Sequence record: DRR378314_1792
DNA: 22,322 nt
Reading direction: 5' to 3' (one strand)
Part shown: piece after piece, positions 3,315-22,228 of the stretch
Numbering within the stretch: the stretch's first letter is position 1
Layout of the letters: every line of letters begins with the position of its first letter
Notes under the pieces: model-generated
What the model saw: the letters and a program-made list of their open reading frames with translations, nothing else
Databases searched by the model: none
Told to the model about the DNA's origin: nothing
Program-made: the position numbers and the translations under genes

Positions 3315-3424
3315 TGAGTTTTACTCAGCTGTCTTGAAGAGACAAAGACAAATTGTTTGCCATCGCATAGGGCGATGGATAATAGCGGTCAGACATCGGG
3401 TCGAGCCGCATGGAAGGAAAAGAA

Positions 3425-5536
3425 ATGTTTGAGATACATCGCAAGGAAGTGATGTGGGGCGGACGTCCGCTCGTATTGGAAACAGGTAAAGTTGCGCGTC
3501 AGGCTGATGGCGCCGTCATGGTAACATATGGCGGTACACAGGTTCTGTGTACTGCAGTTGCAGCAAGATCAGAAAAACCCGGGATCGATTTTTTCCCACT
3601 GACAGTCAATTATCAGGAAAAAGCCTATGCTGCTGGCAAGATCCCTGGTGGCTTTTTTAAACGGGAAGCACGCCCGAGTGAAAAAGAAACGCTGGTCTCC
3701 CGGTTGATCGACCGTCCGCTTCGCCCGTCATTCGTCAGCGGCTTTAAAAACGAAACACAAATCCTGTGTACAGTCGTTGCCCATGATCTTGAAAATGATT
3801 CAGACGTCGTTGCCATGATCGGTGCGTCGGCCGCTTTAACGATTTCAGGCATTCCGTTTATGGGTCCTGTTGGTGCAGCTCGCGTCGGTTTCAAAGACGG
3901 CGAATACATCCTGAACCCAACATCTGAGCAGCTTGAAGACACAGATCTGGATCTGGTTATTGCCGGTACAGACGAAGCGGTTCTGATGATTGAATCCGAA
4001 GCCAATGAACTCACCGAAGAGCAGATGCTCGGCGCTGTCATGTTTGGCCATAAAGAATTTCAGCCTGTTATCAATGCCATCATTGATCTTGCCGAAGACA
4101 GTGCCAAAGAGCCTTGGGATTTCCAGCCACCGGAAGTAAACGCGGATCTGGAAGCAAAAGTAAAAGCCAGTGCAGAAGCCGGCCTTGCTGATGCTTATAA
4201 AGAACAGGTCAAACAGGACCGGGTTGAGAAAATCACCGCAGCCAAAAAGGCCGCGCTGGAATCGCTCGAAGAAGATGAAGTCGAAGCCGCCAACGGTATC
4301 CTCAAGAAAATCGAAAAATCCATCGTCCGCGGGAATATCATTTCCACTGGCACTCGGATTGACGGCCGTGATACCCGGACAGTTCGTCCGATTGTTGCTG
4401 AAGTTGGTTCACTCCCTCGCGCACATGGCTCTTCGCTCTTCACACGCGGTGAAACCCAGGCACTTGTTGTCACCACATTGGGTACAGGCCAAGATGAACA
4501 GATCGTTGACGCCCTCGACGGTGAATATCGTGAAAACTTCATGCTGCATTATAACTTCCCACCTTACAGTGTTGGTGAAGTTGGCCGGGCGGGCTTTACC
4601 AGTCGCCGCGAAGTTGGTCATGGTAAGTTGGCATGGCGGGCCGTTCATCCACTGCTGCCAAGCAAGGAAGAATTCCCTTACACATTACGTGTGGTTTCTG
4701 AAATCACAGAATCCAATGGCTCCTCTTCTATGGCGACCGTTTGCGGTGCCTCATTGGCTCTGATGGATGCCGGTGTTCCCTTGAAAAGCCCGGTTGCCGG
4801 AATTGCAATGGGACTGATCCTGGAAGAAGACGGTCAGTTCGCTGTTCTCTCTGACATCCTGGGCGATGAAGATCACCTGGGTGACATGGACTTTAAGGTT
4901 GCAGGAACGGACAAAGGCATTACATCTCTACAAATGGATATTAAAATTGCCGGTATTACCGAAGACATCATGCGTCAGGCACTTGCCCAGGCGACTGAGG
5001 GTCGGCTGCATATCCTTGATGAGATGGGTAAAGCCATCGACGCTGCACGTGAGGGTGTCCGTGATGGAGCTCCGCGCATCACTCAACTGAGTGTTGCCAA
5101 GGACAAAATCCGCGACATCATCGGAACTGGCGGTAAGGTCATTCGCGAAATTTGCGAAACAACCGGCGCCAAGATCGATATTGATGACGATGGTAGCGTC
5201 AAAGTCGCTGCGACGACGACCGAATCTGCAGAGGCGGCCGTAAATTGGATCAAATCCATCGTGGATGATCCAGAAGTTGGCCATACCTATACAGGTAAAG
5301 TCGTAAAAGTTGTCGACTTCGGTGCTTTCGTGAATTTCTTTGGCAACCGGGACGGTCTGGTTCATATTTCTGAACTGGCGCCAAAACGGGTTGCCAAGGT
5401 TACAGACATTGTCAACGAAGGTGACGAGGTCCAAGTTAAGGTTCTGGAAATTGATGGCCGGGGCAAAGTTCGCCTGTCAATGAAGGCTGTCCTTGCAGAC
5501 CAGGAAAAAGCTGACGAAGAAAGCAGCGACGACTAA
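3425..5536 (+). CDS. pnp: Polyribonucleotide nucleotidyltransferase (PNPase)
   Basis: Two RNase PH domains ([35 protein letters not shown]) plus KH ([10 protein letters not shown]) and S1 (DGLVHISEL). Start placed at ATG 3425 because AAGGA lies at 3414-3418; the ORF track starts at 3410. Confidence 0.99.
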
Positions 5537-5548
5537 GTGATATTGGGA

Positions 5549-5577
5549 AGAGGCGGCTGCGCTACTATGCCGCCTCT
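5549..5577 (+). terminator. Hairpin after pnp
   Basis: AGAGGCGGC...GCCGCCTCT 9-bp stem just after the stop codon; no clear U-tract. Confidence 0.45.
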
Positions 5578-5658: not shown

Positions 5659-7059
5659 GTGAAGTCACTGAATTCCATATTAATGTCGGGTAAAGAAGTT
5701 CTGCCCGTGATCGAAGGCGGCAAGGGTATTGCTGTTTCCTCCGGCCAAAGCTCAGGTGCTTGGGCTGCAGCAGGAGGTGTTGCAACTTTTTCTGGCGTCA
5801 ATGCAGATAGTTACGACGATAATGGTCAACGCATTCCTCAGGTTTATTATGGTCGCACCCGTCGGGAGCGACATGATGAGCTGGTTGCATATGGCATTAG
5901 TGGTGGCATTGCACAGGCACAGATCGCCCACGAATTAGCCGCTGGACAAGGCGCCATTCATATGAATGTTCTGTGGGAAATGGGCGGTGCAGAGCGGATC
6001 CTTCATGGTGTCCTTGAAGGGGCGAAAGGCCTGATCAATGGGATCACCTGCGGCGCAGGCATGCCTTATCGTGTTGCTCAGATCGCAGCTGACTATAAAG
6101 TTCACTATTATCCAATTATTTCCTCTGCCCGGGCGTTTCGCGCCTTGTGGAAACGCGCGTATCATAAATTTTCAGACTGGCTTGGCGGCGTTGTATACGA
6201 AGACCCGTGGCTAGCAGGTGGCCATAACGGCCTTAGCAATTCCGAAGACCCGCGATCACCGGAAAACCCGTATCCACGCGTTGCGGCACTTCGTAAATTG
6301 ATGAATGAAATTGGCCTTCAGGACACGCCCATTATTATGGCAGGCGGTGTCTGGCATATTGAAGACTGGGAAGACTGGCTGGACAACCCGGAAATTGGGC
6401 CGATCGCGTTTCAGTTCGGGACACGGCCCCTCCTCACCCAGGAAAGCCCGATTTCCGATGCCTGGAAGAAAAAGCTGAGCACTTTGAAAAAAGGCGATGT
6501 GTTTCTCAACAGGTTCAGCCCAACGGGCTTTTGGTCCTCTGCGGTCAATAACGACTTTATTGGGGAACTTAAAGAACGCTCAGAACGACAGGTGGCGTTT
6601 TCAACCGAGCCCGTCGGCGCACATACTGCTGCGTTCAGCATGGGTGCCCGTAAACGCGAAGTTTTCTTGACCGAAGAAGACAAGAAAAACGCTGAAAAAT
6701 GGGTAGCTGACGGCTTTGATCAGGTCATGAAGACACCCGATACGACCCTGATTTTTGTTGGTAAAGACAAGATGCAGGAAATCCGCAAAGACCAAGTGGA
6801 TTGTATGGGCTGTCTGTCTCAATGCTCTTTCTCCAACTGGGCTGAGAATGAAAAAGGCAATACAGGTCGCAAGGCCGATCCCCGCAGTTTCTGTATTCAG
6901 AAAACGTTGCAGGATGTCATTCATTCTGAGGCGAACATTGAGAATAATCTCATGTTCGCAGGACATGGCGCCTATCGTTTTGCAACCGACCCGTTTTATT
7001 CGGACGGCTTCATTCCGACAGTAAAACAACTTGTTGATCGGATAATGACCGGTAAATAA
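5659..7059 (+). CDS. FMN-dependent oxidoreductase of the nitronate monooxygenase/FabK superfamily with a C-terminal 4-Cys motif (FabX/UfaA-like)
   Basis: LPVIEGGKG, ITCGAGMP, EDPWLAGGHNG, PIIMAGGVW and FQFGTR TIM-barrel motifs; C-x2-C-x3-C-x22-C (DCMGCLSQC...FCIQ) followed by NLMFAG; GTG start. Confidence 0.9.
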   Translation: MKSLNSILMSGKEVLPVIEGGKGIAVSSGQSSGAWAAAGGVATFSGVNADSYDDNGQRIPQVYYGRTRRERHDELVAYGISGGIAQAQIAHELAAGQGAIHMNVLWEMGGAERILHGVLEGAKGLINGITCGAGMPYRVAQIAADYKVHYYPIISSARAFRALWKRAYHKFSDWLGGVVYEDPWLAGGHNGLSNSEDPRSPENPYPRVAALRKLMNEIGLQDTPIIMAGGVWHIEDWEDWLDNPEIGPIAFQFGTRPLLTQESPISDAWKKKLSTLKKGDVFLNRFSPTGFWSSAVNNDFIGELKERSERQVAFSTEPVGAHTAAFSMGARKREVFLTEEDKKNAEKWVADGFDQVMKTPDTTLIFVGKDKMQEIRKDQVDCMGCLSQCSFSNWAENEKGNTGRKADPRSFCIQKTLQDVIHSEANIENNLMFAGHGAYRFATDPFYSDGFIPTVKQLVDRIMTGK

Positions 7060-7084: not shown

Positions 7085-7096
7085 GATAATATTATC
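7085..7096. promoter_or_regulatory. Perfect palindrome GATAATATTATC in the putative irr promoter
   Basis: 12-bp palindrome built from Fur-type GATAAT half-sites; overlaps TTGATA (7083-7088), with TATATT/TATTAT 16-18 bp downstream. Confidence 0.35.
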
Positions 7097-7146
7097 GGTA
7101 CACCTATATTATTGGTCAAAGAAACTTTTAATCACCAAGGGTGTGT

Positions 7147-7563
7147 ATGACGACAAGCAATCAGGGACTGGAAGGCCGGCTTAAACAGGTCAATTTGCGA
7201 GCAACGCGCCAGCGTCTAGCGCTGGCGAACCTATTGCTCACAAATGGAAACCGTCATATTACAGCGGAACAGCTTCACGCTGAAGCATTGAGGTCCGGCG
7301 TCAGAATTTCCCTGGCCACCATCTATAATAACCTGCACCAGTTTACGCAGGCAGGGCTATTGCGCGAAGTTATAGTGGATGCAAGCCGCTCTTATTTTGA
7401 CACAAACACCTGCCATCACCATCACCTCTTCCATGAACGCGATGGCATTTTACAGGATCTGCCGGCAGACTCTCTCAAGATCACTGGTCTTCCCGACCTT
7501 CCCGAAGATACTGAGATTAATTCCGTAGATGTGATCGTCAGAGTCGGCAAAAAATCCAATTAG
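7147..7563 (+). CDS. irr: Iron response regulator Irr (Fur family)
   Basis: LRATRQRLAL, RHITAEQLH, SLATIYNNLHQFT.AGLL and YFDTN..HHH motifs, with C-terminal VDVIVRV typical of Irr. ATG 7147 has AAGGG upstream; GTG 7141 is an alternative start. Confidence 0.92.
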   Translation: MTTSNQGLEGRLKQVNLRATRQRLALANLLLTNGNRHITAEQLHAEALRSGVRISLATIYNNLHQFTQAGLLREVIVDASRSYFDTNTCHHHHLFHERDGILQDLPADSLKITGLPDLPEDTEINSVDVIVRVGKKSN

Positions 7564-10341: not shown

Positions 10342-10938
10342 TTATGCTTCTGCGCGACGCCGGCGCCAGCCCATAAACCCAAGAAGGGCCATGCCTGCAC
10401 CATATAGTGGCAACGCTGCCGGAAGCGGAACAGCTGAGATAGCGACATTCGCAAATTCAAAAGAGTTGCCTGTTGACAGGAAGCGAACCTCATCAAAAGA
10501 ACCATTTGTCAGAATTGTTGCCATAATGAAGTCAGCACCTTCAGTTGCGCCTTCGTCAATTGCATCCTGACCGACCACTGAATCAACGAGCTGGCCGTCA
10601 CTATAGAATTCCATAGAGTTATACAGATCCACAGAACCCCACATAAATGTCAGGCTATTCATCATTGACTGGAAGTAAAACGTTGCTGACGCACCGCCGA
10701 ATACAGATGTGTAGGTGTTTCCAGTATTTGATGTCGTATCCCATGGGGACCGACGTTGGCTGGACACTGAACCGGTTACACCTTGTTGAACTGTACCGCT
10801 TGTAGCATCTGCGGTTGGAACACCAATATCATTTAATGGCTCATCAAAGCTGACACTAACTGTTGCAGCCTGTGCGGATGCTGCAAAAAGAATAACTGCA
10901 CCAAAAGCACCGATAAAAGTCTTAACTAAGGACTTCAT
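10342..10938 (-). CDS. VPLPA-CTERM exosortase-sorted surface protein (core resembles the Npun_F0296-like family)
   Basis: Signal peptide ending ASAQA|ATV; Ser/Thr/Asn-rich beta-type core with WGSVD.YNS.EF and N.FEF.NV; C-terminal VPLPAALPLYGAGMALLGFMGW-RRRR (motif, transmembrane helix, Arg cluster); AGAGGGG SD. Confidence 0.92.
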   Translation of the reverse strand: MKSLVKTFIGAFGAVILFAASAQAATVSVSFDEPLNDIGVPTADATSGTVQQGVTGSVSSQRRSPWDTTSNTGNTYTSVFGGASATFYFQSMMNSLTFMWGSVDLYNSMEFYSDGQLVDSVVGQDAIDEGATEGADFIMATILTNGSFDEVRFLSTGNSFEFANVAISAVPLPAALPLYGAGMALLGFMGWRRRRAEA

Positions 10939-18050: not shown

Positions 18051-18078
18051 ATTTCAATAATACTTGGAAATGGTGGAT

Positions 18079-19539
18079 ATGAAACCTTTAAAAGGCCTTC
18101 TTTCAGACTATGATCAGGGTGAATTCTTTTGTGAACTTCTTGGTTTACCTGATAAAAGCTCGGTAAGCGCCCCAATACTTGAAACGATTATTGGCAGACT
18201 TGATAAAATGAGTCTGAAGACCTTGCGTAAACGGGCCGAAGCCACTGAAAAAGAACTCTACAATTTGGGCATTACATTTACGGTTTATACAGACAGTCAG
18301 GCGATAGACCGGATTTTACCTTTTGATGTCTTACCCCGCGTCATTACTGCTCAGGATTTTGAGAAGATTGAGCGCGGCGTGCAGCAGCGGGTCAAAGCCA
18401 TCAACACGTTCCTTAAGGACATCTATCACGATCAAAAAATCCTGAAAGATGGTGTCATTCCAAAAGAACTGGTGCTGGGAAACGAAAATTACTGCAAACA
18501 GATGGAAGGGGTCCATATCCCCGAGGATACATATGTTCACATCTGTGGCATTGATTTGGTTCGCGATGTGGATGGTCACTTCAAAATTCTGGAAGATAAC
18601 GCCCGGACACCGTCGGGAGTATCATATGTGGTGGAGAACCGCCACCTGATGCTTCGAACCTTTCCTGACTTTTTGAAAGGTGTGGGAATTCGGCGGGTCT
18701 CTGACTATGGCTTGCACCTCTACAAAGCGCTGGCAGAGGTTGCGCCCGAAAGTGCAGGGTCAAACCCCTCTGTGGTCCTTCTGTCCCCGGGTGTCTATAA
18801 CTCGGCCTATTTTGAGCATGTCTTTCTGGCCCGCGAAATGGGTGTGCCCCTGGTCGAAGGGGGTGACCTGACGGTTGAAGATGACAAGGTATACATGAAG
18901 ACGACCGCAGGCCTTCAAAAAGTGGATGTGATTTACCGAAGGATCGGTGATGACTTTCTGGATCCAAAGGCCTTTCGAAAAGACAGCATGCTGGGTGTTC
19001 CTGGGCTTTTCGGGGCCTACACAAAGGGCAATGTCACTCTTGCAAACGCCATCGGGACCGGCGTTGCAGACGATAAGGCGGTCTACGCCTATATGCCTCG
19101 CATCATTAAATATTATCTGGATGAAGATGCCATTCTTGATAATGTAGATACACATATCTGCGGTGAAAAAGAAGGTTTGGATTACACTCTTGATAATCTT
19201 GAAAACCTGGTGGTCAAGCCCGTTGGTGAGGCCGGTGGCTACGGCGTCATCGTCGGGCCCCGAGCGACCCAAAAAGAACTACAGCAACGGAAACAGGAAT
19301 TGCTGGATGACCCGGCAAATTATATTTCTCAACCCATGATCGGACTGTCCGTTTGTCCGACCTTGGTGCAAGGGGGAATTGAGTCTCGACATGTTGATCT
19401 GCGACCCTTCGCGGTGACGGGGAAAAGCACCTGGGTTTTACCCGGTGGCCTGACCCGTGTCGCCTTGAATAAAGGGTCGCTCATTGTTAACTCCTCGCAA
19501 GGGGGCGGATCTAAGGATACCTGGGTACTTGAAAAATAG
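18079..19539 (+). CDS. Circularly permuted type 2 ATP-grasp protein (predicted peptide/amide ligase)
   Basis: GITFTVY, DRILPFDVLPR, LEDNARTPSGVSY, NSAYFEH, VDVIYRR, GTGVADDK, VVKP..EAGGYG, RHVDLRPF, PGGLTRVAL and VNSSQGGGSKDTWVL. Start uncertain (18064 TTG, 18070 ATG or 18079 ATG). Confidence 0.96.
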   Translation: MKPLKGLLSDYDQGEFFCELLGLPDKSSVSAPILETIIGRLDKMSLKTLRKRAEATEKELYNLGITFTVYTDSQAIDRILPFDVLPRVITAQDFEKIERGVQQRVKAINTFLKDIYHDQKILKDGVIPKELVLGNENYCKQMEGVHIPEDTYVHICGIDLVRDVDGHFKILEDNARTPSGVSYVVENRHLMLRTFPDFLKGVGIRRVSDYGLHLYKALAEVAPESAGSNPSVVLLSPGVYNSAYFEHVFLAREMGVPLVEGGDLTVEDDKVYMKTTAGLQKVDVIYRRIGDDFLDPKAFRKDSMLGVPGLFGAYTKGNVTLANAIGTGVADDKAVYAYMPRIIKYYLDEDAILDNVDTHICGEKEGLDYTLDNLENLVVKPVGEAGGYGVIVGPRATQKELQQRKQELLDDPANYISQPMIGLSVCPTLVQGGIESRHVDLRPFAVTGKSTWVLPGGLTRVALNKGSLIVNSSQGGGSKDTWVLEK

Positions 19540-20488
19540 TCTGCTATCACGATTTGCGTTAAATATCTTCTGGCTCGCCCGATATATGGAGCGAACAGAT
19601 AGTCTGGCACGCCGGCTGGAAGTGACGGAAACCCATTCCCGGGACGAACATGGAACCCAGGATTGGGAACTCATGCTCAATGTGAATAGCGATCTGGAGC
19701 GCTACAAAAAACAATATAAAAAGATCACACCGGAAAACGTAATCCACTTCTATTCCATTGATAAGACGAACCCCACATCAATGATTACGTCGGTCACCAA
19801 TGCCCGTGAGAATGCCCGCTCCTTAAGACATCTGATCAGCACGGAAATGTGGGCGGAGATCAATGCCCTTCACAATTTTTTTGCATCCGTAAAAAAGCGA
19901 GATATTCAAACCCGGCGCTTTTCAGGTTTCTGTGACAGCATCAAAGAAAGATGCCAGGCACATTCCGGCATTACAGAAGCCACCCTTTATCGGGATCAGG
20001 CCTATAATTTTTATTGGATGGGCAAATTGGTGGAACGGGCCGATCAGGCATCCCGGTTATTGGATGTTGGCTTCACACGGGCGCAGAAACTCGGATATGG
20101 AGATGCAGACGCAGGTGAAAATCTGTCTCACTGGACAGCCCTTCTGCGCTCTGTGGGTGGGTATCAGGCTTATCGCCGCACGCATCCCATCCACCTAAGG
20201 TCCCATGAGATAACTGATTTTATTCTTTTAAACATTTCCTTTCCCCGGTCTGTGAACTATTGTATCGAAGAAATCCGCGACAATATGGTTCAATTGATCG
20301 ACAGCCAGGACGTGGAAAACGCTCGAGAAGCAATGCAGGCGTTAGAGATAATTCGCAAACAATTGGCAGGCGCAGATGTTCAGCTCTTAGTAACCTCTGG
20401 GCTTCATGAATTTGCTGATACCCTGCAGCAACAACTGACTGATTTTACTCAAGTGCTGGCAAAAGGTTGTTTCGGCCAGGATGGCTAG
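19529..20488 (+). CDS. Alpha-E domain protein (DUF403-type)
   Basis: LLSRFA.NIFWLARYMER, ARENARSLR..ISTEMW..IN, second ER motif GKLVERAD..SRLLD and FPRSV. No in-frame ATG precedes the conserved start; TTG 19529 overlapping the upstream stop is the most likely start. Confidence 0.93.
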   Translation: MKNSLLSRFALNIFWLARYMERTDSLARRLEVTETHSRDEHGTQDWELMLNVNSDLERYKKQYKKITPENVIHFYSIDKTNPTSMITSVTNARENARSLRHLISTEMWAEINALHNFFASVKKRDIQTRRFSGFCDSIKERCQAHSGITEATLYRDQAYNFYWMGKLVERADQASRLLDVGFTRAQKLGYGDADAGENLSHWTALLRSVGGYQAYRRTHPIHLRSHEITDFILLNISFPRSVNYCIEEIRDNMVQLIDSQDVENAREAMQALEIIRKQLAGADVQLLVTSGLHEFADTLQQQLTDFTQVLAKGCFGQDG

Positions 20489-20499
20489 GACACATAGAA

Positions 20500-21375
20500 A
20501 TGCAGACCCTACGTATTCGTCACCGCACGGAGTATCGGTATCACAAACCCGTCTCCTTTGGTGAACACCGACTAATGTTTCGGCCTCGGGACAGTCACGA
20601 TTTACGGCATGTCTCCAGTCAACTCAGCATTAAACCGCATGCAGATATTCGCTGGCATCATGATGTGTTTAGCAACTCCATTGCCGTTGCCGAATTTACC
20701 GAACCGGGCGATCATTTAGTTTTGGAAAGTACGGTTGTCGTTGAACATTACGGGCTTGAGGATACCGTGTTTCCCATTGATAATCATGCCAGGCGCCTCC
20801 CCTTCAGCTACAGTGCCGATGAGGTTGGCGATCTTGCGCGAACCCATGAACGTCACTATCCCGATCCTTATGGCAGGATCGTCAGCTGGGCCAACCAATG
20901 CATGACCGAAGGCAACTTTGAGACAGAGCTGACCCTGGCCGCCATGACCCATAACATCCATCAGAATTTTGAATATGTCACCCGGAATGCGGAAGGCACG
21001 CAATCACCCGATGAAACCCTGTTCAAGCTTCAGGGAACCTGCCGGGATTTCGCCTTACTCATGATCGAGGCGGCCCGCACATTGGGGCTCGCCGCCCGAT
21101 TTGTGACAGGCTACCTGTTCGATCCCCATCAAGATGAAACCTCAGGGCTGCGCGGCGCCGGCGCAACCCACGCCTGGGCCCAGATCTTCCTGCCGGGGGC
21201 GGGCTGGATCGAATATGATCCGACAAATGGTATTATTGGCGGGGCAAACCTGATCCGGGTCGCCGTGACCCGGGATCCCGCACAAGCCATTGTTGTTCGC
21301 GGAACCTATGCGGGGGCACCGGAAGACTACAAGGACATGGAGGTCAGTGTCACTGTCGAGAGGGTAGATCCTTAA
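20500..21375 (+). CDS. Transglutaminase-family protein (bacterial transglutaminase N-terminal domain plus core)
   Basis: IRHRTEYRY and DVFSN in the N-terminal domain; triad GTCRDFA (Cys), ATHAW (His), YDPTN (Asp); ARFVTGYL. ATG 20500 with AGGA upstream. Confidence 0.95.
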   Translation: MQTLRIRHRTEYRYHKPVSFGEHRLMFRPRDSHDLRHVSSQLSIKPHADIRWHHDVFSNSIAVAEFTEPGDHLVLESTVVVEHYGLEDTVFPIDNHARRLPFSYSADEVGDLARTHERHYPDPYGRIVSWANQCMTEGNFETELTLAAMTHNIHQNFEYVTRNAEGTQSPDETLFKLQGTCRDFALLMIEAARTLGLAARFVTGYLFDPHQDETSGLRGAGATHAWAQIFLPGAGWIEYDPTNGIIGGANLIRVAVTRDPAQAIVVRGTYAGAPEDYKDMEVSVTVERVDP

Positions 21376-21382
21376 CCCAGTG

Positions 21383-22120
21383 CTATTTCGGCATGGGCGG
21401 CATTCGGTTAAACGCCGCGCGAAGAGCATTCCCCCAGCGCTTTTGAATATCCCTAAGATAGGGGTTTTCCTCATCGATAACCTTCAGGGTATCCACGGTT
21501 AGTGCGTCCCGCCGAAGGGTCACTATATCCAGAGGCGGGCCAACCGAGATGTTGGAGCGAAGTGTCGAATCCATGGAAATCAAGGCAAGCTTGACCGCCT
21601 CATCCAGGTCGAGATCATATTGAATAACCCGATCCAGAATTGGCTTGCCATATTTGGTCTCACCGATTTGAAAATAGGGGGTTTGCTCACTGGCTTCTAT
21701 AAAATTACCGGCGGAATAGATCGTAAAAAGGCGCATTTGACCGCCTCTGATCTGGCCGCCCAGTAAGAAAGTGGCGTTAAACTCCATCCCCTGTTGACGG
21801 AGCGCTTGGCCATCCTGCTTTTCCACCAAACGCAAGGCCTTACCCACGAGCCGGGCTGCATCGCGGATACTGGTTACCGTTGCCATTGTCACCAGTTCGC
21901 CGTCTTCCTCATCCAAGGGGATCCCTTCACGAACCATATCAACAACGGCTTGGGTAACAGCAAGATTTCCCGCTGTAGTCAACGCGATGACCCGCTCACC
22001 CGGCTCATCCCACAAGGTCAGCTTTCGGAATACGGAAATATGATCAACGCCCGCATTGGTACGGCTATCAGACACCATCACCAAGCCTTGGTTGAGGGCC
22101 ATCCCTATACAGTAGGTCAT
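21383..22120 (-). CDS. Anbu proteasome-type Ntn protease
   Basis: M-T-Y-C start (N-terminal Thr nucleophile), SDSRTNAGVD, AGNLA.TQ, YSAGNFIEA, QIGETKYGKPILDR and SMDSTLRSN.SVGPP. AAGGA SD before ATG 22120. Confidence 0.96.
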   Translation of the reverse strand: MTYCIGMALNQGLVMVSDSRTNAGVDHISVFRKLTLWDEPGERVIALTTAGNLAVTQAVVDMVREGIPLDEEDGELVTMATVTSIRDAARLVGKALRLVEKQDGQALRQQGMEFNATFLLGGQIRGGQMRLFTIYSAGNFIEASEQTPYFQIGETKYGKPILDRVIQYDLDLDEAVKLALISMDSTLRSNISVGPPLDIVTLRRDALTVDTLKVIDEENPYLRDIQKRWGNALRAAFNRMPPMPK

Positions 22121-22138
22121 GCGACATTCCTTAAACTG

Positions 22139-22167
22139 GGGGTACCCCCGAAAAACACTGACGACAA
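22139..22167 (-). promoter_or_regulatory. Candidate promoter for the Anbu gene
   Basis: Minus strand TTGTCG-N17-TACCCC; the -10 overlaps the palindrome GGGGGTACCCCC (22138-22149). Confidence 0.3.
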
Positions 22168-22172
22168 AATAC

Positions 22173-22228
22173 CAAAATTTCCCAAAACCCGAAGTAAATC
22201 TATCGGAAGTCGGCAAATTTTCCCAAAA
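22173..22228. repeat. 15-bp direct repeat pair in the Anbu/tRNA divergent region
   Basis: CAAAATTTCCCAAAA (22173-22187) and CAAATTTTCCCAAAA (22214-22228), 14/15 identical, starts 41 bp apart. Confidence 0.6.

Follow-up and report, generated by a model that had tools for sequence, protein, structure and literature searches.

The window, a stretch of 22,322 nucleotides, comes from a marine alphaproteobacterium with a Sneathiella-like genome. Its gene at 5659..7059 (+ strand), called X here, opens with a GTG start, closes with a stop codon and encodes a protein of 466 amino acids, the long-form FabX-like flavoprotein considered below. The GTG start fits the orthologues, since these align from residue 1. 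The translation matches the Pfam nitronate monooxygenase (NMO) family PF03060 at E 5.7e-10, its 39.5 bits exceeding the cut-off of 28, and every public name encountered for the protein is "nitronate monooxygenase" or NAD(P)H(-dependent) flavin oxidoreductase. X is a single-copy gene whose orthologues are 58-94% identical across the Alphaproteobacteria. Upstream of it lie infB, rbfA, truB, rpsO and pnp, the last encoding polynucleotide phosphorylase (3410..5536, + strand; TIGR03591, 1062 bits). Downstream, irr, the iron response regulator (7141..7563, + strand; NF045678 IrrA, 186 bits), is followed by a minus-strand gene with an SH3 domain and by a gene resembling 2-hydroxyacid/glyoxylate reductases. 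This agrees with an earlier, sequence-only reading, which had placed X between pnp and irr-SH3-2-hydroxyacid dehydrogenase. Just past the pnp stop an inverted repeat with an 8-bp G+C-rich stem can be read from the sequence (5549..5577, + strand). This repeat may be the pnp terminator; in that case X would have its own promoter. A terminator scan did not call the repeat because it has no T-run, the terminator and promoter scans of the window gave consensus-level matches only, and Rfam at its gathering threshold gave no matches in the window.

Two motifs stand out in the translation. The AGGHNG loop (6214..6231, + strand; residues 186-191) carries H189, which aligns with the catalytic His position of FabX (His182), and a four-Cys motif, C382-x2-C385-x3-C389-x22-C412 (6802..6894, + strand), is presumed to be a [4Fe-4S] site. 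For invariance we used 30 orthologues at 68-90% identity to X and 6 representatives reaching down to 42% identity; both sets keep H189 and all four Cys without exception, and for this reason the motifs are not due to chance. The 466-residue NMO-superfamily protein with AGGHNG and C-x2-C-x3-C-x22-C that the sequence-only reading had noticed is thus real, with the Cys motif exactly at 6802-6894.

Helicobacter pylori FabX (HP0773; PDB 7E1Q, 9LT5 and others) is described in PMC8626469 as an FMN/[4Fe-4S] decanoyl-ACP dehydrogenase/isomerase, and the roles of its FMN, H182, phosphopantetheine-contact and ACP-contact residues are taken from that source. Residue pairs between X and FabX were read from a HMMER alignment, with invariance checked in the 30 orthologues and 6 representatives. 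The FMN-contacting residues N99, E175, Q240 and T243 of FabX align with N103, E181, Q252 and T255 of X, all invariant, and H182 aligns with the equally invariant H189. The phosphopantetheine contacts I147, S149, G184 and Y277 correspond to I153, S155, G191 and F291. A basic helix of X (R158, R161, K165, R166, K170; 6130..6168, + strand) is aligned with the ACP-binding helix alpha7 of FabX, and four of the five basic residues of the FabX helix are kept, K152, K159, R160 and R164 corresponding to R158, K165, R166 and K170, each invariant in the 30 orthologues. Other ACP-docking positions in helix alpha7 and the alpha6-beta4 loop are changed (I156 to A162, T130 to Y137 and N131 to R138). The [4Fe-4S] ligands of FabX are given as C300, C304, C308 and C320 (PMC8626469), and a second stretch of the profile alignment places C412-I413 of X and the following helix on C320-I321 of FabX. 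We infer from the sequence that the four-Cys motif of X would likewise bind a [4Fe-4S] cluster; the structural model of X is uncertain for residues 185-193, which form the active-site loop, and for the Cys region (375-408), with pLDDT below 50 in both.

Profile and fold comparisons agree on the closest relative. When the PDB was searched with X as a single sequence, FabX entries were the only matches at E <0.1 (E 6e-20, X residues 15-314), and a profile of 6 members of the X family returned FabX at 1.7e-30, ahead of FabK (0.032) and the best-scoring nitronate monooxygenase, 6bka (0.036). Foldseek likewise ranked FabX first (4.7e-18), then FabK (~1e-11 to 1e-12) and the 2-nitropropane dioxygenase 2gjl (9e-10). 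With VIA-align, residues 1-465 of the model superposed on FabX with Z 30.5 and an rmsd of 3.1 Å over 339 of 363 residues at 28% identity, the alignment extending to the FabX C-terminus, whereas FabK, PA1024 and NMO gave Z 26.2-26.7 over ~300 aligned residues at 18-21% identity. Against the FabK equivalog model TIGR03151, X scored 15.9 bits, far below its cut-off of 453.1. The similarity to FabX is itself modest (28% identity, 74 bits, compared with 186-275 bits for the short forms described below). Characterised nitronate monooxygenases are not the closest relatives of X, their chains ranking below both FabX and FabK by fold. A family representative search with X yielded mostly fragments of the same family and no FabX, FabK or NMO outgroups. 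The claim that X would group with FabX, rather than with FabK or with nitronate monooxygenases proper, is borne out by these profile and fold comparisons.

X had also been described as longer than H. pylori FabX through extra sequence ahead of the Cys motif, and the additional length is indeed mainly an insert of ~60 residues just before that motif. The family-specific insert (about residues 310-372; 6586..6774, + strand) is predicted by AF2 models to form a small beta-beta-beta-alpha-beta-beta domain with pLDDT 81-95. Neither FabX nor any of the 12 short FabX/UfaA-like proteins compared has it, and the alignment with the short forms leaves a gap of ~57 residues at this place. For the insert, a broad VIA search using the C-terminal model produced no convincing fold match (best Z 5.2), and a protein-atlas search with residues 305-466 returned scores of at most 0.83, at lead level only. 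Our guess is that the insert, together with the re-spaced Cys motif, might form an interface for a physiological electron acceptor.

The distribution of X was examined in one fixed set of 301 Alphaproteobacteria genomes of unstated completeness, counting strong matches (E no worse than 1e-94) as X. By this measure X is present in 185 genomes and fabA in 102 (97 above the model cut-off), with fabB in the same 102; no genome has both X and fabA+fabB, and 14 have neither. The mutual exclusion predicted from the sequence alone is thus complete in this sample. Neither fabA nor fabB was detected in the 185 X genomes or in six Sneathiella relatives, and judging from these relatives the organism of the window would lack fabA as well. 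X occurs in ~60% of the sampled alphaproteobacterial species, many of which have genomes of only 1-2 Mb. Of the 185 X genomes, 183 have FabI, and X is thus not tied to FabI-less organisms; FabI matches usually number two in fabA-type genomes and one in X-type genomes. FabF was above its cut-off in all five X genomes checked. Desaturases of family PF00487 are absent from 99 X genomes and encoded in the other 86, so that X need not be the sole route to unsaturated fatty acids (UFA) everywhere; the closest relative of the window (genome G040; 94% identity) encodes two. A wider sample of 236 Pseudomonadota genomes contained fabA in 98, long X in 81, a short FabX/UfaA-like form in 44 and none of these in 13, again with no overlaps. 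The short forms are 367-422 residues long and have four Cys at the aligned site in 12 of 12 compared; two that were tested match FabX at 5e-81 and 7e-54. They probably include UfaA orthologues.

Genomic position follows the same division. Of the testable X loci, 70 of 79 have pnp immediately upstream in the same orientation and 45 of 83 have irr immediately downstream; irr lies within 2.5 kb of fabA at 14 of 20 fabA loci. In the fabA-type arrangement pnp and irr flank fabI-fabB-fabA, which is encoded on the opposite strand, so the proposal that this operon normally occupies the pnp-irr slot holds in fabA-type Alphaproteobacteria; we take Sinorhizobium and Brucella to have it there. A PNPase tree, built from a single gene that is itself a neighbour of the locus, places five switches between the X and fabA states, and a topology with one fabA clade fails the AU test (ΔlnL 238, p 3.7e-60).

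We consider it likely that X belongs, as a long form, to the FabX/UfaA branch of the NMO/FabK flavoprotein superfamily and that it introduces the cis double bond of UFA in its host and in most Alphaproteobacteria without fabA/fabB. The sequence-only proposal of an alphaproteobacterial FabX-type enzyme standing in for fabA/fabB is thereby supported by comparative evidence from homology, residues, phyletic exclusion and locus. Substrate, chemistry, cofactors and electron acceptor are assigned by analogy, the reaction steps being modelled on H. pylori FabX. An acyl-ACP of about C10 would dock on the basic helix and pass its acyl-phosphopantetheine into a tunnel above the FMN, where H189 and FMN would convert decanoyl-ACP to trans-2-decenoyl-ACP. 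During this dehydrogenation one electron might be parked on the [4Fe-4S] cluster presumed to be held by C382, C385, C389 and C412. X would then isomerise the enoyl intermediate to cis-3-decenoyl-ACP, which FabF would elongate to acids of the cis-vaccenate type. Sneathiella is rich in C18:1 ω7c, which we do not count as evidence here; a literature search for its fatty acid profile gave taxonomy text only.

The same phyletic and locus pattern would be expected if X did no more than isomerise trans-2- to cis-3-decenoyl-ACP in the manner of FabM, acting on the FabZ product with no net dehydrogenation and with flavin and Fe-S in structural or redox-neutral roles. Isomerisation is reported to be spontaneous in the FabX tunnel and not to need oxygen (PMC8626469), and such an enzyme would make no reactive oxygen species in aerobes. 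The entire redox set of FabX (FMN ligands, His and four Cys) is, however, invariant across the X family and is therefore hard to explain without redox chemistry, and we regard a purely isomerising X as unlikely. As the replaced operon includes fabI, X might also be a FabK-like enoyl-ACP reductase taking over from that fabI copy, with UFA made otherwise. The shared fold superfamily (Z 26-27), the weak FabK model match of 15.9 bits and the usual fall from two FabI matches in fabA-type to one in X-type genomes are consistent with this. Against it, 183 of 185 X genomes have FabI, the match compares with a cut-off of 453 bits and a profile preference of 1.7e-30 for FabX over 0.032 for FabK, and in FabX the Fe-S subdomain replaces the NAD(P)H site of FabK (PMC8626469). 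Moreover, 99 X genomes without fabA, fabB or a PF00487 desaturase would be left with no known UFA route, and the reductase reading appears highly improbable.

It is very unlikely, too, that X acts on acyl-ACP or acyl-CoA in some other pathway, such as lipid modification or cofactor synthesis, and tracks fabA-less lineages for historical reasons. That the function of X is deduced throughout and that its insert domain has no known relative leave room for such a role, but all five independent switches were exchanges between X and fabA-fabB at one and the same locus, the short FabX/UfaA-like homologues are likewise excluded from fabA genomes, and UfaA and FabX are experimentally linked to UFA synthesis in the accounts of PMC11300592 and PMC8626469. 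Least probable in our judgement is the annotated function, in which X would serve detoxification, either by oxidising nitronates as an NMO or as an NAD(P)H:quinone/flavin oxidoreductase. It has the Pfam NMO match and the public protein names in its favour, but true NMOs and PA1024 are farther from X than FabX is by both profile and fold, and X is a single-copy gene, 58-94% identical across the class, fixed in position beside housekeeping genes and equipped with a four-Cys subdomain.

FabX has been cast as a peculiarity of H. pylori and of a small number of anaerobes and microaerophiles, and even as a "species-specific" drug target (PMC8626469, PMC12079444), and PMC4549310 calls cis-vaccenate synthesis in fabA-less Proteobacteria unresolved. 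Our literature search, which did not include the original UfaA paper, found no description of the long-form X family and no link of FabX/UfaA to Alphaproteobacteria. If our reading is correct, a diverged and longer relative of FabX is the default UFA enzyme in most of the sampled alphaproteobacterial species, and its systematic misannotation as nitronate monooxygenase or flavin oxidoreductase would be corrected. A gap in the metabolic reconstruction of X-bearing bacteria would also be filled, membrane fluidity would be linked to iron-sulphur and flavin supply, and at least five natural swaps between fabAB and X would become available for the study of non-orthologous gene displacement.

The FabX reaction depends on O2 and generates superoxide in vitro. 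A bolder and rather doubtful extension is that the long form is the main, possibly ancestral, double-bond enzyme of Alphaproteobacteria, swapped repeatedly and cleanly with fabA-fabB(-fabI) at a single pnp-irr hot spot, and that, through its insert and its altered cluster-site spacing, electrons from acyl-ACP dehydrogenation may pass to a dedicated cellular acceptor and not to O2. Were the latter true, X would carry out a 'backtracking' desaturation without reactive oxygen species and independent of oxygen.

Among known systems, FabX offers the nearest comparison. X shares with it an FMN-type TIM barrel and, C-terminal to this, a subdomain with four Cys (in X a putative cluster site), the catalytic His, FMN ligands, phosphopantetheine contacts and a basic helix that would dock ACP, an Ile directly after the fourth Cys where a helix begins, and occurrence in genomes that lack fabA/fabB and rely on FabF. 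It differs in length (466 against 363 residues, at 28% identity), in the ~60-residue alpha/beta insert before the Cys motif, in Cys spacing (x2/x3/x22 in X, x3/x3/x11 in FabX) and in the replacement of the ACP contact T130 by Tyr (Y137). The hosts also differ, those of X being mostly aerobic Alphaproteobacteria, whereas FabX homologues at >50% identity are reported mostly from anaerobes and microaerophiles (PMC8626469). UfaA of Neisseria gonorrhoeae (NGO1024) and betaproteobacterial homologues such as Ralstonia RSc0114 are NMO-family proteins described as needed or proposed for UFA synthesis without fabA (PMC11300592, PMC4549310). The short FabX/UfaA-like homologues of Pseudomonadota resemble X in having four Cys at the aligned site and in never occurring with fabA (236 genomes); unlike X they have 367-422 residues and no insert, and their matches to FabX are much stronger (5e-81, 7e-54 in the two tested). 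FabK has the fold, FMN, His and acyl-ACP substrate in common with X, but uses NAD(P)H, has no Fe-S subdomain and matches only marginally in sequence. NMO/2-nitropropane dioxygenase and the NADH:quinone reductase PA1024 share PF03060 and the fold, but lack the four-Cys subdomain, are farther by profile (0.036) and aligned length, and behave differently in genomes. FabA-FabB, with the FabI of their operon, have the same proposed physiological role and occupy the same pnp-irr slot, but they are unrelated to X, comprising a hot-dog dehydratase/isomerase acting on 3-hydroxydecanoyl-ACP and a dedicated KAS I, and work without flavin, iron or an electron acceptor.

X, the 466-amino acid protein encoded at 5659-7059 of the plus strand, is an intact open reading frame with a GTG start. 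The AGGHNG and four-cysteine motifs that the sequence-only reading had placed in this nitronate monooxygenase (NMO) superfamily protein are both present in the plus-strand translation, the former as residues 186-191 (nt 6214-6231) and the latter as C382-x2-C385-x3-C389-x22-C412 (nt 6802-6894). The annotated neighbours likewise agree with its placement between pnp and the irr-SH3-2-hydroxyacid reductase-like genes: infB, rbfA, truB, rpsO and pnp lie upstream, and the downstream side holds irr, a minus-strand SH3-domain gene, a glyoxylate/2-hydroxyacid reductase-like gene, arfB and queF. The pnp stop codon is followed by an inverted repeat of 8 bp, rich in G+C (5549-5577). Between X and irr we also noted a perfect palindrome of 12 bp, GATAATATTATC (7085-7096), resembling a Fur box. 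Promoter-like hexamers on either strand overlap it, so irr may be controlled in a metal-dependent way. Because X is 94% and 90% identical to proteins from Sneathiella limimaris and S. glossodoripedis, respectively, the window derives from a Sneathiella-like alphaproteobacterium. Elsewhere in the window, 18064-22216 carries a cluster of circularly permuted ATP-grasp, Alpha-E domain and transglutaminase-like genes, with proteasome-beta-like gene(s) on the opposite strand, which we take to be the known Anbu-type arrangement, and 10342-10938 (minus strand) encodes a 198-amino acid protein with an exosortase-dependent surface protein domain, Npun_F0296 (44 bits), and without a Pfam match.

The sole Pfam match of X was NMO (PF03060, E 5.7e-10), and its sole NCBIfam match was FabK, which scored 15.9 bits where the cut-off is 453 and so fell far below threshold. 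Membership of the FabK or true nitronate monooxygenase groups was weighed against the proposed grouping with FabX, the FMN/[4Fe-4S] acyl-ACP dehydrogenase/isomerase of Helicobacter pylori. When X alone was searched against the PDB, only H. pylori FabX entries were returned at E < 0.1 (6e-20; X residues 15-314). A profile of six family members gave FabX at 1.7e-30, followed by FabK (2z6i) at 0.032 and nitronate monooxygenase at 0.036, and it aligned a second stretch, X 402-441 on FabX 310-348, which places C412-I413 on FabX C320-I321. We modelled X with AlphaFold2 from 30 orthologues (pLDDT 76, pTM 0.77; weak at 185-193 and 375-408). Foldseek again put FabX first (4.7e-18), with FabK at ~1e-11 to 1e-12 and the 2-nitropropane dioxygenase 2gjl at 9e-10, as did VIA-align, in which residues 1-465 of the model matched FabX with Z 30.5 (rmsd 3.1 Å over 339 of 363 residues, 28% identity) versus Z 26.2-26.7 for FabK, PA1024 and NMO (~300 residues, 18-21% identity).

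Residue roles given for FabX in PMC8626469 were transferred to X by single-sequence alignment. The FMN ligands N99, E175, Q240 and T243 correspond to X N103, E181, Q252 and T255; the catalytic H182 to H189; the phosphopantetheine contacts I147, S149, G184 and Y277 to I153, S155, G191 and F291; and the ACP-helix residues K152, K159, R160 and R164 to R158, K165, R166 and K170. All these X positions, and the four cysteines, were invariant across 30 orthologues, and the catalytic, FMN-ligand and cysteine positions were so too across six representatives with identities as low as 42%. FabX T130, N131 and I156 are not conserved, being Y137, R138 and A162 in X.

If X stands in for fabA and fabB, the two should be mutually exclusive, as had been anticipated, and this was borne out in one fixed set of 301 Alphaproteobacteria genomes (90 being the requested minimum completeness, with per-genome values not reported). 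X had strong matches in 185 genomes (E no worse than 1e-94, mostly 60-73% identity, nearly always single copy); in two further genomes the only match was at E ~1e-5, which we read as paralogues. We found fabA (TIGR01749) in 102 genomes (97 above cut-off) and fabB (NF005935), adjoining fabA, in exactly the same 102 (93 above cut-off). No genome had both strong X and fabA, and 14 had neither (Fisher p 1.7e-65, without phylogenetic correction). Two unpublished genomes in the sample, G037 and G212, are X-positive; without them X is found in 183 of 299 and the claims are unaffected. FabI was present in 296 of the 301 genomes, including 183 of the 185 with X, and absent from 3 of the 14 lacking X and fabA. 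FabF was above cut-off in all five X genomes examined. PF00487 desaturases occurred in 165 genomes, and 99 of the 185 X genomes had none. Among Sneathiella relatives, fabA was not found in six, and PF00487 was absent in two of four tested; the closest, G040, has two.

Several other features of this sample were noted. Estimated by eye and uncounted, FabI matches were mostly two in fabA-type genomes (one in a fabA-fabB-fabI operon) and mostly one in X-type genomes. One fabA-type genome (G173:C8:2045599-2048361) had two tandem fabB matches of equal score adjoining fabA. Seven genomes (G063, G073, G101, G117, G190, G217 and G244) had FabI and were missing X, fabA/fabB and PF00487 desaturase; they are small (0.8-1.6 Mb where size is given) and may be incomplete, lipid-scavenging or users of another route.

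X was directly preceded by pnp on the same strand (<1.5 kb) at 70 of 79 testable loci and directly followed by irr at 45 of 83. Of 20 fabA loci from fabA-type genomes, 14 had irr no more than 2.5 kb away and 11 had pnp inside the 19-kb stretch; eight had both. Three of these loci were annotated: two read pnp, fabI-fabB-fabA on the opposite strand, irr, in line with the fabI-fabB-fabA between pnp and irr that the sequence-only reading gave for Sinorhizobium and Brucella, and the third was alike without fabI. X therefore occupies the exact slot of fabI-fabB-fabA in other Alphaproteobacteria. A FastTree PNPase phylogeny (72 X-type and 11 fabA-type rows) implied five state changes, at least four forced by well-supported branches; a quick IQ-TREE search on 43 of the 83 rows (all 11 fabA and 32 X chosen for diversity) again gave five, all forced. 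On the latter set the AU test rejected a single fabA clade (ΔlnL 238, p 3.7e-60), these being results for a single gene neighbouring the locus, with the fabA group named after the first tree was seen. Two pnp-X loci labelled as a Terriglobales/Acidobacteriota MAG (L063) and Rhizobium sp. Q54 (L028) nested in the FastTree phylogeny within the Dongiaceae and Stellaceae groups; misbinning or mislabelling seems more likely here than gene transfer.

Across 236 Pseudomonadota genomes X matches were bimodal, with none of intermediate strength: in 81 genomes X had a strong match over its full length (E 1e-187 or better, identity 58% or more), and in 44 a weak one (26-35% identity at E 1e-14 to 1e-23; open frames of 335-436 amino acids). 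fabA was present in 98; the three sets had zero overlap, and 13 genomes had none of the three. We retrieved 12 of the 44 weak matches, or short forms. All 12 had four cysteines at the aligned site, six in a CX3CX3CX9C class (367-376 amino acids) and six in a CX5CX3CX12C class (388-422). Because the cysteines are kept and one representative of each class matched FabX over its full length (5e-81 and 7e-54), the short forms appear to be the FabX/UfaA-like proteins proper, with X a deeper, longer branch that is likewise exclusive with fabA.

The proposal that X is a FabX-type stand-in for fabA/fabB is thus supported, the support being comparative throughout: profile, fold, residues, phyletic exclusion and shared locus. 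We consider it probable that X introduces the cis double bond in Alphaproteobacteria lacking fabA/fabB, working like FabX. We found no literature in which this alphaproteobacterial family is connected with the synthesis of unsaturated fatty acids, though Isabella & Clark 2011 may list alphaproteobacterial homologues. The public names we encountered for X orthologues were only nitronate monooxygenase, 2-nitropropane dioxygenase, NAD(P)H-dependent flavin oxidoreductase and hypothetical protein; named hosts include Sneathiella, Oceanibacterium, Tistrella, Dongia, Skermanella, Desertibaculum, Indioceanicola, Azospirillum, Niveispirillum, Elioraea, Falsiroseomonas and a Rickettsiales endosymbiont.

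FabX has been termed species-specific (PMC12079444), and its homologues (>50% identity) are assigned to 1650 species in 31 genera, most of them anaerobic or microaerophilic (PMC8626469). Bacteroidales FabX has been reported, and Neisseria gonorrhoeae NGO1024/UfaA is said to use an unknown anaerobic electron acceptor (PMC11300592); the route to unsaturated fatty acids in Ralstonia is described as unknown, with a UfaA homologue put forward as candidate (PMC4549310). X exceeds FabX by 103 residues. The extra length had been expected ahead of the cysteine motif, and alignment with the 12 short homologues located a ~57-residue insert directly there. It also showed that the Cys3-Cys4 loop of X is extended by ~10 residues and that X has a further short stretch close to its C-terminus. 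AlphaFold2 confidently predicted the insert (~310-372) as beta-beta-beta-alpha-beta-beta (pLDDT 81-95); a search for structural relatives of it gave no convincing match (best Z 5.2). One 476-amino acid family member (P0014), 42% identical to X, has Trp at the family's invariant Gly (e.g. EGGKW, AWWH), which suggests that its source organism reads UGA as Gly, translated here as Trp; in that case the long form would also occur outside Alphaproteobacteria. Compared with FabX and its short homologues, X is, as modelled, a structurally distinct long form of the FabX kind, with an extra domain, a re-spaced cysteine motif and mostly aerobic hosts.
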